In this document: piece after piece, positions 11,526-54,434 of the stretch
Position numbering within the stretch: position 1 is the stretch's first letter
Layout of the letters: each line of letters opens with the position of its first letter
NCBI GenBank assembly: GCA_037917675.1
Contig: JAVCBW010000005.1
Coordinates: 93,887 to 157,886, forward strand
Reading direction: 5' to 3'
Source of the DNA: Thermoproteota archaeon
Lineage (GTDB): Archaea; Korarchaeota; Korarchaeia; B14-G2
DNA: 64,000 nucleotides
Made by a program: the position numbers and the translations under genes
The notes under the pieces: generated by a model
Seen by the model: the letters and a program-made list of their open reading frames with translations, nothing else
The model's database searches: none
What the model was told of the DNA's origin: nothing

Positions 11526-11547
11526 TGTAAGCAAAGTAATAGCTTAG

Positions 11548-11645
11548 CGGGGGTAGCCAAGCCTGGCCAACGGCGGCAGAAGCTGCTGAGACTCAAGATC
11601 TGCTCCCTTAGGGGTTCGTGGGTTCAAATCCCACCCCCCGCACCA
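11548..11645 (+). tRNA. tRNA-Leu (anticodon CAA). It has a type II variable arm and probably an 11-nt intron at a non-canonical position; CCA is encoded.
   Basis: The acceptor is GCGGGGG/CCCCCGC. The D-arm is GCC-AAGCCTGGCCAAC-GGC. The anticodon stem GCAGA/TCTGC encloses 18 nt ending CTCAAGA. The variable arm is TCCCTTAGGGG, the T-arm is GTGGGTTCAAATCCCAC, and the 3' end is ACCA. Confidence 0.7.
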
Positions 11646-15152: not shown

Positions 15153-15271
15153 GCGGGGGTTGCCGAGCCTGGACAAAGGCGCAGGAGCCGTTATGGCGGT
15201 GTGACTTAAGATCTGGGTGGTGAGGCATCCTGTCCCTTAGGGGTTCGTGGGTTCAAATCCCACCCCCCGCA
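15153..15271 (+). tRNA. tRNA-Leu (anticodon UAA) with about 34 nt of intronic sequence that appears to flank the anticodon loop on both sides. CCA is not encoded.
   Basis: The acceptor is GCGGGGG/CCCCCGC. The anticodon stem CAGGA/TCCTG encloses 41 nt containing CTTAAGA. The variable arm TCCCTTAGGGG and the T-arm are identical to those of tRNA-Leu(CAA). Confidence 0.65.
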
Positions 15272-42192: not shown

Positions 42193-42533
42193 AAGCAGAA
42201 AAACCTAACGTCCCATAAGGCTACTAGCCCCTGGCAATCCTCAGGAGGCTATCTGGAATTCCATGTATAAGAGCTGACTCAAAGCTGCCAAAGCATAAAA
42301 GTTAATAGACCCCCTCCAGTAGGGTGTGAAGCCTAAGCAACTTGATCGACACAATGCCTAGCATGCCCTAGCAGGCTAAGAGTAATGCAGATACACTAGG
42401 AGATGTTGCTAGCATCTTCCACCAGTTTAACACATAAGCTATAAGAGACGTAAGGAGAGCTCTGCTCATCTGTTATATGGAGGCTAAGTAGCTGGGAGAA
42501 ACTCTTAATAGGTTAGGGGTAACTACTGAGCTG

Positions 42534-42587
42534 ATGATGAATGCTTCCGGGACTGAGCTAGGCGATGATGTAAAGGCATTTGACTGA
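42534..42587 (+). ncRNA. Candidate C/D-box sRNA (C-guide-D'-C'-guide-D).
   Basis: The C box is AUGAUGA (42534-40). A 12-nt spacer precedes D' CUGA (42553-56). After 7 nt comes C' GAUGAUG (42564-70). A 13-nt spacer precedes D CUGA (42584-87). It ends 10 nt before the ATG of the next gene. Confidence 0.45.
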
Positions 42588-42597
42588 GGGGACATAG

Positions 42598-43530: not shown

Positions 43531-43722
43531 TAGAGAATTCCTATAGGCTGTGGCTGCAGGTGCTTGAATGAGAAGCTCAGCCAGCTCATCTTCTGCTAGC
43601 TGAGCTAGGCAAGATTAATGTACAGATCTTCTATGTTAGAGCATAGTGTATGCTTAAGATGACGCCTGAAGCTATTATGTTTGTAGAGATAGCAGCCTGA
43701 TAGCAGCAGTGGAGGTGGTGAA

Positions 43723-44826
43723 GTGGAAGGTGAGAGGGCTATTTTCGAGTACAGGGGCTTCAACGAGATATACTACGAGAGCGGAGGAGGCATAGACGAG
43801 CTATATGAAAAGGGGTATGTTGAGAAGCTTCCAAGTGGAGAGTATGTGATGCCATCAGTAGCAGCAGTCCACTTGCTTGAGCAAGGTAAGGTGGTGATAA
43901 GGGAGGAGGGGAGAGAGGTTACAGCACTGGAGGTCTTAGAAGATGCTGTGAAAGCTAGCCCAGACAATATACTAAGGTACTTCGTCTTTAAGGATCTCAG
44001 AACAAAGGGGAGGCTAGCTAAAGTTGAACTTAACACCCCGTTCATAAGGCTATACCCAAGAGGAGGGAGAGTAGGAGAAACACCAGCAACCACGCTGATC
44101 TACTGCATATCAGAGGATAAGCCCATAAGGCAGAGCGAAATACTGGAGAAGATAAAGTATGCTCAGCTAGCTAGGAAAAGCCTCATATTTGCAGTAATCG
44201 ATGACGAGATGAACATAAGCTACTATGCTGCAGAGGAGTTCGAGCCAAAGAAGATACGTGAAGTAGACTTATCCTTTCCTGAAGCTGATGGCATAGTCAT
44301 GCATGACAGAGTCATAGTATGGGACCATGAAGTTGGGAATGCCATATATAAGGCAGGTTTCTGGGGGCACTTTATAGGGGTAGCTAAGCCGAGGCATGAC
44401 CAGTACTATGAGAAGCCACTCCAGCTCTCCCTGACCGAGGCATGCTATCTAGCTGAGAAGAAGAAGATAAAGCTATATAGGGTAGGGACACATAGCCTAG
44501 TGAGCACCAAAGAGATAGCTGAGCTTCATGCTAAAAGCAGGGTTAAGGGAGCAGAGAAGATAGTAGCATACACATACTGGAGGGATAGGGGATACGTAGT
44601 TAAGCCAGCGTCAAAGTATGGGGTGGACTTCATGTTCTATGAGCTTGGGCCGGGAATAGACCATGGGCCCTATATGTGCCTCGTCTCAACCCCTGATGAA
44701 ATGATACTCCCAGTTGAGCTTATCAGAGCAGGGCGTATAGCGACTTCAGTGAGAAAAACCTTTGTTGTGACCGTAGTTGATGGGAGTAGAGTAGTTAACT
44801 ATAAGTTCAGCTGGAGGAAGCTTTAA
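43723..44826 (+). CDS. endA: tRNA-splicing endonuclease, long two-repeat form (degenerate N-terminal unit plus catalytic C-terminal unit).
   Basis: The C-terminal unit is SLTEACYLAEKK...AYTYWRDRGYVVKPASKYGVDFMFYELGPGIDHGPYMCLV, with catalytic Tyr/His/Lys as in the archaeal EndA active site. The N-terminal unit is YFVFKDLRTKGRLAKV...LIFAVIDDEMNISYY. The start is GTG. Confidence 0.7.
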   Translation: MEGERAIFEYRGFNEIYYESGGGIDELYEKGYVEKLPSGEYVMPSVAAVHLLEQGKVVIREEGREVTALEVLEDAVKASPDNILRYFVFKDLRTKGRLAKVELNTPFIRLYPRGGRVGETPATTLIYCISEDKPIRQSEILEKIKYAQLARKSLIFAVIDDEMNISYYAAEEFEPKKIREVDLSFPEADGIVMHDRVIVWDHEVGNAIYKAGFWGHFIGVAKPRHDQYYEKPLQLSLTEACYLAEKKKIKLYRVGTHSLVSTKEIAELHAKSRVKGAEKIVAYTYWRDRGYVVKPASKYGVDFMFYELGPGIDHGPYMCLVSTPDEMILPVELIRAGRIATSVRKTFVVTVVDGSRVVNYKFSWRKL

Positions 44827-45247
44827 GTGGAAGCGGAGGCACTCTCCCAGAAGCCATGTTCAGGAAGTCTCTCAGCTTCATCCACGACCTCCTTGCCTCA
44901 TCTAGCTTAACTGAGAAGGTCTTACCCCTCCTTTCAGGTATTTCTGTAGCTCTTATGAAGAAGAGCTCGCCTGGAGCCAGCTTTGTAAACGCAGCCACCA
45001 GCCAAGGCTCTGCGCTGAATTTCTCACAGAATATAGCCAGCTGAGCTATCTCATCCCACGTATACTTGATCCTGTCTCCAGCTGTCGATTTAACTTGGAA
45101 AGCATAGAGCCTGCCATCTATACAGGCCAAGACATCTGGAGATGGATGTACCGAAGCCCCACTACCAGGGCTTCTGAGAGCCCCATATCCACTTCTCCAC
45201 ATGATGTCCACAAGCTTACGCTCGATATACTCACCTCTCTTCGGCAA
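44807..45247 (-). CDS. hjc: Holliday junction resolvase Hjc.
   Basis: Supporting sequences are GEYIERKLVDIMWRSGYGALRSPGSG and PDVLACIDGRLYAFQVKS (catalytic E/D/K). Confidence 0.8.
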   Translation of the reverse strand: MPKRGEYIERKLVDIMWRSGYGALRSPGSGASVHPSPDVLACIDGRLYAFQVKSTAGDRIKYTWDEIAQLAIFCEKFSAEPWLVAAFTKLAPGELFFIRATEIPERRGKTFSVKLDEARRSWMKLRDFLNMASGRVPPLPLKASSS

Positions 45248-52967: not shown

Positions 52968-54377
52968 TTGGACAGCATCCTGAAGCTCATATCAAGTGAG
53001 GTGACACCGAAACCAGAGGAAAGAGAGGCTTTAGAGAGGGCTGTATCAGAAATCACGAGGAAGCTGCAGGATATCAGAGACAGATATGGGTGGAGATATG
53101 AAGTAATGCATCTGGGGTCGACAGCAAGAGACACATGGCTTTCTGGGAGCAGAGACATAGACATCTTTCTAGCATTTCCCTTAGATGAAGGCGAGAGTGC
53201 AATGGAGGAGATAGGTGTTAGAGCTGGGATAGAGGTGTCAGGTGGAAGATATAAGCTGCTTTACTCAAGCCACCCATATGTCAGAGTGGAGCATAGAGGC
53301 TTTGAGATAGACATTGTACCATGCTATAGGATAACAGATGTATCTCAGCTTAGGAGCGCAGTCGATAGGACACAGCTGCACCAGAAGTATCTGGAGGAGA
53401 AGCTGACTCCAGAGCTATGCAGTGACATAAGGCTGATGAAAGCCTTTGCTAGGGGGGTTGGGGTATATGGAGCTGAAGCTAAGACTAGAGGCTTCTCAGG
53501 ATATCTACTAGAGCTCATAGTCCTCTACTATGGGAGCTTCCTTGAAGCGATCAAGGAGGCATCAATGTGGAAGCCTCCTATAGTAATCGACATAGAGGGG
53601 TATTATGCTCCGAGAGAAGCTAGAGAGGTCTTTGACTCCCCTATTATAGTCGTGGACCCAGTGGATAGGAGAAGGAATGCTGCTGCATCAGTGAGCAAGC
53701 AGGCACTATCAGCCTTCATAGCAGCCTCCTCGCTCTTCCTAGCAAGGCCCAGCATTGCCTTCTTCAAGCCACCACAGAAAAAGCTACCTGACAAGGTCGA
53801 AAGCCACTTTGCAATAGTGGCTTTCAAGCTGACTAGGGCTCCACCAGATGTCCAGTGGAGCCAGCTTGAGAAGACATGTAACAAGGTCAGAGCATACCTG
53901 GAGGAGCAGGGAGCTCAGGTATTGGGGGCTAGCTTCTGGACAGATGAAGATATCAGAGGTGCTTTAGCATTTAAGTTCGCTAGCTGGCAGATACCAGAAG
54001 CTAGAGTGCACTATGGGCCATTTGTCTGGCAGAAGGAAGAGAGCTTGAAGTTCATAGACAAGCATCTTAGGAGAGAGGATACGATTGAAGGCCCTTTCAT
54101 ACAGGACTTCAGGTGGGTTGTGGTGAAGAGAAGAGAGAGAAGTGTGCTGAGCATTTTGAGGAGCCTTGTATCTAGTATGAGCATCATGGTGTCAATTGGG
54201 GTACCTGCAAGGATAGCTGAGTGCATAGAGAGGGAGCACATGGTCTTAACTGAAAGGGATATAGCAGCCATAAGGGGCACAGAGCTAGAAGAGTTCCTGT
54301 CGGAGCTACTGGATAGAACTCCTCAGTACGTCAAGTGGGGCCGGCGGGACTTGAACCCGCGACCTCCAGCGGTCTAG
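52968..54377 (+). CDS. cca: CCA-adding tRNA nucleotidyltransferase, archaeal class I.
   Basis: Supporting features are GSTARDTWLSGSRDIDIFLAFP (Pol-beta NT motif) and the typical length. The last 14 codons run antisense through the neighbouring tRNA gene. Confidence 0.8.
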   Translation: MDSILKLISSEVTPKPEEREALERAVSEITRKLQDIRDRYGWRYEVMHLGSTARDTWLSGSRDIDIFLAFPLDEGESAMEEIGVRAGIEVSGGRYKLLYSSHPYVRVEHRGFEIDIVPCYRITDVSQLRSAVDRTQLHQKYLEEKLTPELCSDIRLMKAFARGVGVYGAEAKTRGFSGYLLELIVLYYGSFLEAIKEASMWKPPIVIDIEGYYAPREAREVFDSPIIVVDPVDRRRNAAASVSKQALSAFIAASSLFLARPSIAFFKPPQKKLPDKVESHFAIVAFKLTRAPPDVQWSQLEKTCNKVRAYLEEQGAQVLGASFWTDEDIRGALAFKFASWQIPEARVHYGPFVWQKEESLKFIDKHLRREDTIEGPFIQDFRWVVVKRRERSVLSILRSLVSSMSIMVSIGVPARIAECIEREHMVLTERDIAAIRGTELEEFLSELLDRTPQYVKWGRRDLNPRPPAV

Positions 54378-54434
54378 CAGAGGCCCCAGGCTCACGCCTG
54401 TGTTGGCGCCCTAGCCAAGCTGGGCCACGGCCCC
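54336..54434 (-). tRNA. tRNA, 99 nt, containing an intron or introns. The isotype is unresolved; a CUGCUAG loop would give Ser-GCU.
   Basis: The acceptor is GGGGCCG/CGGCCCC. The D-arm is GCCC-AGCTTGGCTA-GGGC. The T-arm is GCGGG-TTCAAGT-CCCGC. The discriminator is A. About 24 nt of excess sequence lie in the anticodon region. Confidence 0.6.

Follow-up and report, generated by a model that had tools for sequence, protein, structure and literature searches.

The open reading frame at positions 43723..44826 (+) of the window, i.e. of the whole 64-kb stretch of DNA analysed here, is a genuine two-unit tRNA-splicing endonuclease (EndA), whose single chain combines a structural with a catalytic half. 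The host is a korarchaeon, and the fused endA gene is the rule in Korarchaeia. Very probably the korarchaeal enzyme consists of a beta-like structural unit (residues 1-186) followed by an alpha-like catalytic unit (residues 187-367) in a single polypeptide, which acts as a homodimer mimicking the (alpha-beta)2 enzyme. Its specificity would be set by a Crenarchaea-specific loop with a lysine residue in the catalytic unit, rather than by the fusion; this loop was absent from the first-pass annotation of the DNA. The enzyme is an ordinary further example of the already described korarchaeal alpha2 type with specific loop, and the points made in 2011 and 2018 are reproduced in a different korarchaeal lineage.

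Gene structure and the two units

The endA gene encodes a protein of 367 aa, begins with a GTG codon and ends with a stop codon at 44824-44826, exactly as the first-pass annotation had placed it. A Shine-Dalgarno-like GGAGGTG (43711..43717 (+), read from the sequence) lies 5 nt before the GTG, and the N-terminal 22 residues of EndA are kept in translation at the 87% identical locus L001. The GTG start is therefore credible. The L001 copy of endA had been called as a shorter gene. Membership in the EndA family is supported by two Pfam domains that both exceed their gathering thresholds: PF01974 (tRNA_int_endo) matches two stretches of the 367-aa protein with 120 bits (cutoff 27), and PF02778 (tRNA_int_endo_N) scores 53.2 bits (cutoff 21). 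The NCBIfam model for the beta subunit matches residues 70-174. The window contains no second EndA-like ORF within its 64 kb.

The N-terminal structural unit (residues 1-186, 43723..44280 (+)) is a complete EndA unit without the catalytic His. Residues 23-170 align to residues 18-166 of M. jannaschii EndA (phmmer against 1a79, E=2e-12), and the columns of the catalytic triad read Y-E-K, such that Y111 and K152 are present and Glu or Pro occupies the position of the His. The unit also retains an acidic L10-type loop, D160-D161-E162 (44200..44208 (+)), which is aligned with 'VDADGD' of M. jannaschii EndA ('AVIDDEMNISYY' versus 'AIVDADGDIVYY' in the alignment). D160 is invariant in 10 of 10 homologues, D161 in all korarchaeal ones. 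By analogy with published EndA structures, from which the role in dimerisation is taken, the L10 loop of the N-unit would insert into the partner protomer.

The C-terminal catalytic unit (residues 187-367, 44281..44823 (+)) carries the catalytic triad (44638..44757 (+)), consisting of Y306 (44638-44640), H314 (44662-44664) and K345 (44755-44757). All three residues are invariant in all aligned homologues and line up with the triad in the alpha subunit of A. pernix, where the His mutated in 3ajv is the counterpart of H314. The best sequence matches of the unit in the PDB are alpha subunits of crenarchaeal (alpha-beta)2 enzymes, namely those of A. pernix (E=9e-32) and P. aerophilum (E=7e-30). 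The division into a degenerate N-terminal endonuclease-like unit and a catalytic C-terminal unit with Tyr, His and Lys, as claimed in the first-pass annotation, is thus borne out, and the alignment to M. jannaschii EndA rules out that the N-terminal half is an unrelated domain.

The C-unit further contains an insertion of roughly 10 residues that corresponds to the Crenarchaea-specific loop (L1, approximately residues 216-232, 44368..44418 (+)) and includes K222-P223-R224. K222 (codon 44386-44388, within 'VAKPR') aligns with Lys44 of the A. pernix alpha subunit (within 'VEKPR'), the residue that is important for the function of this loop (PMC5829648, PMC3241643). In 13 of 13 korarchaeal C-units the segment G215-L233 comprises 19 aa, and in stand-alone alpha subunits 18-19 aa; of the 81 euryarchaeal-type alpha'2 C-units examined, most have only 8-9 aa in the equivalent segment and three have 18-19 aa. 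Within the Korarchaeia proteins aligned, the loop and its Lys are invariant. A sequence search with the window protein gives 74.6 bits for 3p1y, the A. fulgidus chimera with a grafted loop, versus 51.7 bits for the wild-type enzyme 1r0v.

An AlphaFold2 model built on ten homologues (pLDDT 92.2, pTM 0.86) is confident across the junction of the two units. All 41 Foldseek matches with E<=1e-3 are EndA/Sen chains. The structural modelling that had been suggested as a check returns two-unit EndA structures as the best matches: 5x89 (TM 0.78/0.84), followed by the loop-grafted chimera 3p1y and the native A. fulgidus enzyme 2gjw. The fit to the epsilon2 enzyme 4fz2 is poorer (TM 0.63/0.60, rmsd 6.9). 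A three-unit epsilon2 identity is excluded by this difference, together with the presence of two complete units only. Hence, of the likeness to alpha2 or epsilon2 architectures that had been proposed, the two-unit alpha2-type part stands and the epsilon2 part does not.

Distribution and evolutionary placement

An uninterrupted two-unit gene was found at 18 loci (L001-L018, 35-87% identity) in a scan of species-representative genomes with two peptide patterns; K. cryptofilum and the window's own genome are not among the 18, and the patterns probably fail to match the K. cryptofilum protein. The genomes include Ca. Methanodesulfokora washburnensis (class Korarchaeia), and the named closest homologues of the window protein belong to Korarchaeota and Ca. 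Methanodesulfokora. The protein is 87% identical to that of the Guaymas MAG B14_G2 and 42-53% identical to other korarchaeal EndA.

The first-pass annotation had framed the gene as a departure from the typical heterotetramer of Crenarchaea. This framing does not apply to a korarchaeal host, where the fused form is the published norm (PMC3239211, PMC4033280, PMC5829648). Fujishima et al. (2011) listed K. cryptofilum as the sole non-euryarchaeon with an alpha2 endonuclease (PMC3239211), Fujishima & Kanai (2014) classed the 'korarchaeal alpha2 with specific loop' as hypothetical (PMC4033280), and Kaneta et al. (2018) set Korarchaeota apart from the (alpha-beta)2 type of the other TACK archaea, noting an alpha2-type enzyme that has the specific loop (PMC5829648). 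In the literature searched, we found no biochemistry or structure of any korarchaeal EndA.

To place both halves, 167 retrieved proteins were split into 261 units and a neighbour-joining tree with 200 bootstraps was computed. The catalytic unit groups with the alpha subunits of (alpha-beta)2 enzymes and not with the euryarchaeal alpha'2 enzymes: korarchaeal C-units and stand-alone loop-bearing alpha subunits form a clan, apart from the alpha'2 C-units, in 181 of 200 bootstraps. Profile scores agree with the tree. Korarchaeal C-units score 155-198 bits (with one outlier, P0010, at 140) against the alpha-with-loop profile versus 110-138 bits against the alpha'2 C-unit profile, a margin of about 30-60 bits, mostly 45-55. 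For the N-unit, the tree leans to beta subunits and the profile comparison is tied. Its sister group is exclusively beta-like in 95 of 200 bootstraps, exclusively alpha'2-N in 6 of 200 and mixed otherwise, the beta-like sisters being His-less stand-alone units of Methanomethylicia and Asgard lineages; the N-unit scores much the same against the beta and the alpha'2-N profiles.

We consider the chances evenly balanced that the korarchaeal enzyme is a natural beta-alpha fusion independent of alpha'2, that is, a convergent fifth archaeal EndA class with both units derived from (alpha-beta)2 subunits. The placement of the C-unit speaks for this reading, and the tree of the N-unit leans in the same direction. 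An independent korarchaeal beta-alpha fusion was already put forward as a hypothesis in 2011 (PMC3239211). If true, it would therefore confirm a published proposal and would not constitute a discovery.

Among known systems, the alpha2 EndA with specific loop proposed for K. cryptofilum is a close counterpart. Both enzymes have tandem units, a loop with Lys and a catalytic unit placed among the (alpha-beta)2 alpha subunits, and both host genomes have non-canonical and multiple tRNA introns. The window protein belongs to another korarchaeal lineage, and its likeness to K. cryptofilum EndA is judged from the published description. With the alpha subunit of the (alpha-beta)2 enzymes found in Crenarchaeota, exemplified by A. 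pernix (3p1z/3ajv) and P. aerophilum (2zyz), the catalytic unit shares 36-38% identity, and its TM is 0.88-0.91 when normalised to the alpha-subunit chain. It also has in common with them the triad and the loop with the Lys44 equivalent, and the same substrate range would be expected. The two types differ in that the korarchaeal units are not products of two genes but covalently joined, N-unit then C-unit, in a single ORF without a stop in 18 genomes. The N-unit of the window protein is also full length, whereas the P. aerophilum beta subunit has only 96 residues. The best structural match, 5x89, is an engineered M. kandleri beta-alpha fusion (PMC5829648) with the same unit order and two-unit shape. 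It is, however, an artificial construct with constrained specificity and no specific loop, whereas in the window protein the fusion is natural and the loop is present. The epsilon2 enzyme of ARMAN-2 (4fz2, 9w2k) resembles the window protein as a multi-unit homodimer chain that achieves broad specificity via an inserted loop (the dimer and the broad specificity being presumed in our case), but it consists of three units (alphaN-alpha-betaC) with a different loop (ASL/L2), in addition to the poorer structural fit.

tRNA introns and the proposed mode of action

The window harbors three tRNA genes with five introns, three of them at non-canonical positions (29/30, 30/31 and 30/31), in line with the intron-rich tRNAs noted earlier. 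Default ARAGORN reports no tRNA genes in the window, its intron mode (-i) reports three. Introns were assigned by listing every solution with one or two introns that yields a 5-bp anticodon stem together with U33 and R37. The geometry of the splice sites was then evaluated as 4 bp between exon nt -5 to -2 and intron nt -5 to -2, with 3-nt bulges.

The gene for tRNA-Leu(CAA) (11547..11642 (+), Rfam 38.3 bits, also found by ARAGORN -i) contains one 11-nt intron at 30/31 (11580-11590), with a predicted bulge-helix-loop and a central helix of 4/4 bp. The gene for tRNA-Leu(UAA) (15153..15271 (+)) was detected by ARAGORN -i only, whereas Rfam detected the other two genes. It contains an 18-nt intron at 30/31 (15186-15203), with a central helix of 3/4 bp and an inner helix of 4 bp, and a 16-nt intron at 37/38 (15211-15226), with a central helix of 4/4 bp; exhaustive enumeration gives no single-intron solution. 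The gene for tRNA-Pro(GGG) (54336..54434 (-), Rfam 47.2 bits) contains two 12-nt introns, at 29/30 (54392-54403) and 37/38 (54372-54383), both with a predicted bulge-helix-loop and 4/4-bp central helices. Only the two-intron form of this gene yields a 5-bp stem, U33 and R37. None of the three window tRNA genes is explained by a single canonical 37/38 intron. Splicing in silico gives clean calls for all three genes: Pro(ggg), Leu(taa) and Leu(caa).

We note that the original ARAGORN -i assignments, Ser(AGA) for tRNA-Pro(GGG) and Leu(GAG) for tRNA-Leu(UAA), both have a mismatched stem and were replaced after enumeration and the test of splice geometry. Likewise, low-threshold Rfam matches to tmRNA (54333-54434) and Plastid-ycf2 are artefacts of the intron-bearing tRNA-Pro gene.

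Four of the five predicted introns have a perfect 4-bp central helix and the expected 3-nt 3' bulge. Introns of 11-12 nt are too short for the 5' bulge to be closed, so that the corresponding motifs would be bulge-helix-loop motifs. Judged from the predicted splice junctions, most of the five introns are probably of the bulge-helix-loop type. The tRNA-Pro and tRNA-Leu genes of the window thus carry introns of the relaxed or non-37/38 type. According to the literature, bulge-helix-loop motifs are cut only by loop-bearing (alpha-beta)2 and by epsilon2 enzymes, and strict alpha'2 enzymes do not cleave bulge-helix-loop or non-37/38 substrates (PMC5829648).

The first-pass annotation had also tied the architecture of the enzyme to broad specificity. 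One part of this claim holds, as non-canonical, relaxed introns are indeed present. The other does not: because the euryarchaeal alpha'2 enzymes are strict, a two-unit architecture by itself is no predictor of broad specificity.

By homology we infer dimerisation, activity, substrate breadth and a role for K222 as follows. Two chains would pair as a homodimer and so imitate the four units of the (alpha-beta)2 enzyme, with the D160-E162 loop of each N-unit docking on the partner chain. The active sites of the C-units (Y306/H314/K345) would thereby be as far apart as the pair of splice sites in a bulge-helix-bulge RNA, and each cut would produce 2',3'-cyclic phosphate and 5'-OH ends. The loop at approximately residues 216-232 with K222 may provide an additional RNA contact, which would render relaxed bulge-helix-loop introns and introns outside 37/38 cleavable.

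Rival readings and significance

The protein might instead be an ordinary euryarchaeal-type alpha'2 enzyme that is strict for bulge-helix-bulge motifs, with an irrelevant loop and with the non-canonical introns handled otherwise. The alpha'2 enzymes (A. fulgidus 1r0v/2gjw; Methanosarcinales) are also two-unit chains with the triad in the C-unit only, and their N-unit has an acidic L10 loop; alignments to alpha'2 proteins of Methanosarcinaceae cover 88-90% of the length with approximately 33% full-length identity; the alpha'2-type model PRK09300.1-3 (NF006795) is the best full-length NCBIfam model (residues 23-356); and the N-unit scores about as high against the profile of alpha'2 N-repeats as against that of beta subunits. 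The match to the NCBIfam model, at 179 bits, however, falls far under the equivalog cutoff of 501 bits, which the window protein hence misses. In addition, most alpha'2 C-units have a segment of 8-9 aa instead of the 19-aa loop segment, which is present with its Lys and invariant in Korarchaeia, and the alpha'2 C-units form a separate clade, whereas the C-unit considered here joins the stand-alone loop-bearing alpha subunits in the bootstrap analysis described above. Finally, alpha'2 enzymes are strict for the canonical bulge-helix-bulge per literature and do not cut introns such as those of the window, which are mostly predicted to be bulge-helix-loop, with three outside 37/38 (PMC5829648). 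Taken against this evidence, an ordinary alpha'2 enzyme is very improbable.

Slightly less improbable, though still unlikely, is that the protein is only part of an enzyme and needs a separate beta-like subunit, encoded elsewhere, to form a hetero-oligomer. The genome was inspected over 64 kb only, and EndA units that lack the His and stand alone occur commonly in other lineages of TACK and Asgard archaea. Nevertheless, the N-unit already is a complete structural unit with an acidic L10 loop, and the 64-kb window has no second EndA-like ORF. In a comparison with 1.84 billion representatives, two-unit proteins lead the ranking, a stand-alone protein appears no earlier than in 13th place (P0030, E=6e-19, 33% identity), and none of the stand-alone proteins is closely related to the N-unit. 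Likewise, a search with the beta-like profile gave no korarchaeal stand-alone structural subunit among the named matches (best 120 of 648), which are Asgard proteins and euryarchaeal two-unit proteins. The complete genome of K. cryptofilum was reported with an alpha2-type endonuclease gene only (PMC3239211), and artificial beta-alpha fusions are active by themselves (PMC5829648, PMC3239211). That the fusion is an artefact of assembly or gene calling, which joined adjacent beta and alpha genes, is the least credible reading. One Methanodesulfokora MAG speaks for it, in which the gene is listed as two adjacent partial proteins (P0169 and P0170). But the same uninterrupted frame, with linker residues F173 and P175 conserved among korarchaeal two-unit proteins, recurs in 18 species-level genomes that are independent of one another and stem from different studies, an identical protein is present on two contigs, and the AlphaFold2 model is confident through the junction.

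The current view of EndA evolution, and of how tRNA introns and endonucleases have co-evolved, is unchanged by the korarchaeal enzyme described here. With this gene, a type that is still hypothetical in the literature gains a well-supported example from a second korarchaeal lineage. In the same genome, the enzyme is paired with candidate substrates, namely 11-12-nt putative bulge-helix-loop introns at 29/30, 30/31 and 37/38, so that a direct biochemical test would be easy to design.

Genes around endA

The fused endonuclease gene endA (43723-44826, plus strand) is convergent with a gene on the minus strand for an Hjc Holliday-junction resolvase (44807-45247), and the two genes share 20 bp at their 3' ends. 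In structure, Hjc is distantly related to the EndA catalytic domain; it is among the last entries of the Foldseek list obtained with the model of the endA product as query. Further neighbours encode a DHH phosphoesterase, a Gfo/Idh/MocA oxidoreductase, an M24 peptidase of the methionine aminopeptidase type and Sua5/YrdC.

Immediately 5' of the oxidoreductase gene lies an intergenic candidate archaeal C/D-box sRNA (42530-42589, plus strand). On this strand it consists of a C box (AUGAUGA, 42534-42540), a D' box (CUGA, 42553-42556), a C' box (AUGAUGU, 42565-42571) and a D box (CUGA, 42584-42587), with two guide spacers of 12 nt each. The segment matches four sRNA families of Rfam (sR28, sR11, sR47 and sR1), every score being below the gathering score.

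Intron-containing tRNA genes

The two tRNA-Leu genes at 15153-15271 and 11547-11642 (both plus strand) are identical in acceptor stem, variable arm and T arm, and both carry an intron at position 30/31, which suggests that the shared intron position was inherited through gene duplication. The former, a Leu(UAA) gene, has no Rfam match at either of two thresholds. The gene at 54336-54434 (minus strand) can be resolved consistently only as tRNA-Pro(GGG) carrying two introns of 12 nt. Rejected assignments of this gene are tRNA-Ser(AGA), called by ARAGORN with a mismatched stem, and tmRNA/Plastid-ycf2, an Rfam label returned at low threshold.

Partial and divergent homologues

In one Ca. Methanodesulfokora MAG the fused gene is represented by two partial proteins side by side, 177 and 189 aa long (P0169 and P0170, in the cluster of homologue P0021), with consecutive accession numbers on a contig of 20.9 kb. 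This division probably stems from a frameshift or a break in the annotation and not from a true separation into beta and alpha genes. Five loci from Micrarchaeota and Marsarchaeota genomes (L019-L023) have protein products that align to query residues 26-356, thereby spanning both units, at 24-26% identity; these are presumably multi-unit, epsilon2-like enzymes.

Two further homologues, P0077 (389 aa) and P0024 (368 aa), together with the proteins of loci L015-L018, combine the two-unit EndA architecture with a K-P-[KR]-type loop of 18 aa. They resemble the korarchaeal core set far less closely, their catalytic C-terminal units scoring 138-218 bits compared to approximately 290-300 bits for that set. 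The four loci L015-L018 come from the scan of species-representative genomes; they are uninterrupted two-unit genes with 35-39% identity, in MAGs labelled Thermoproteota or Nitrososphaerota. The fused form of EndA with the loop may reach deep korarchaeal branches or other lineages.
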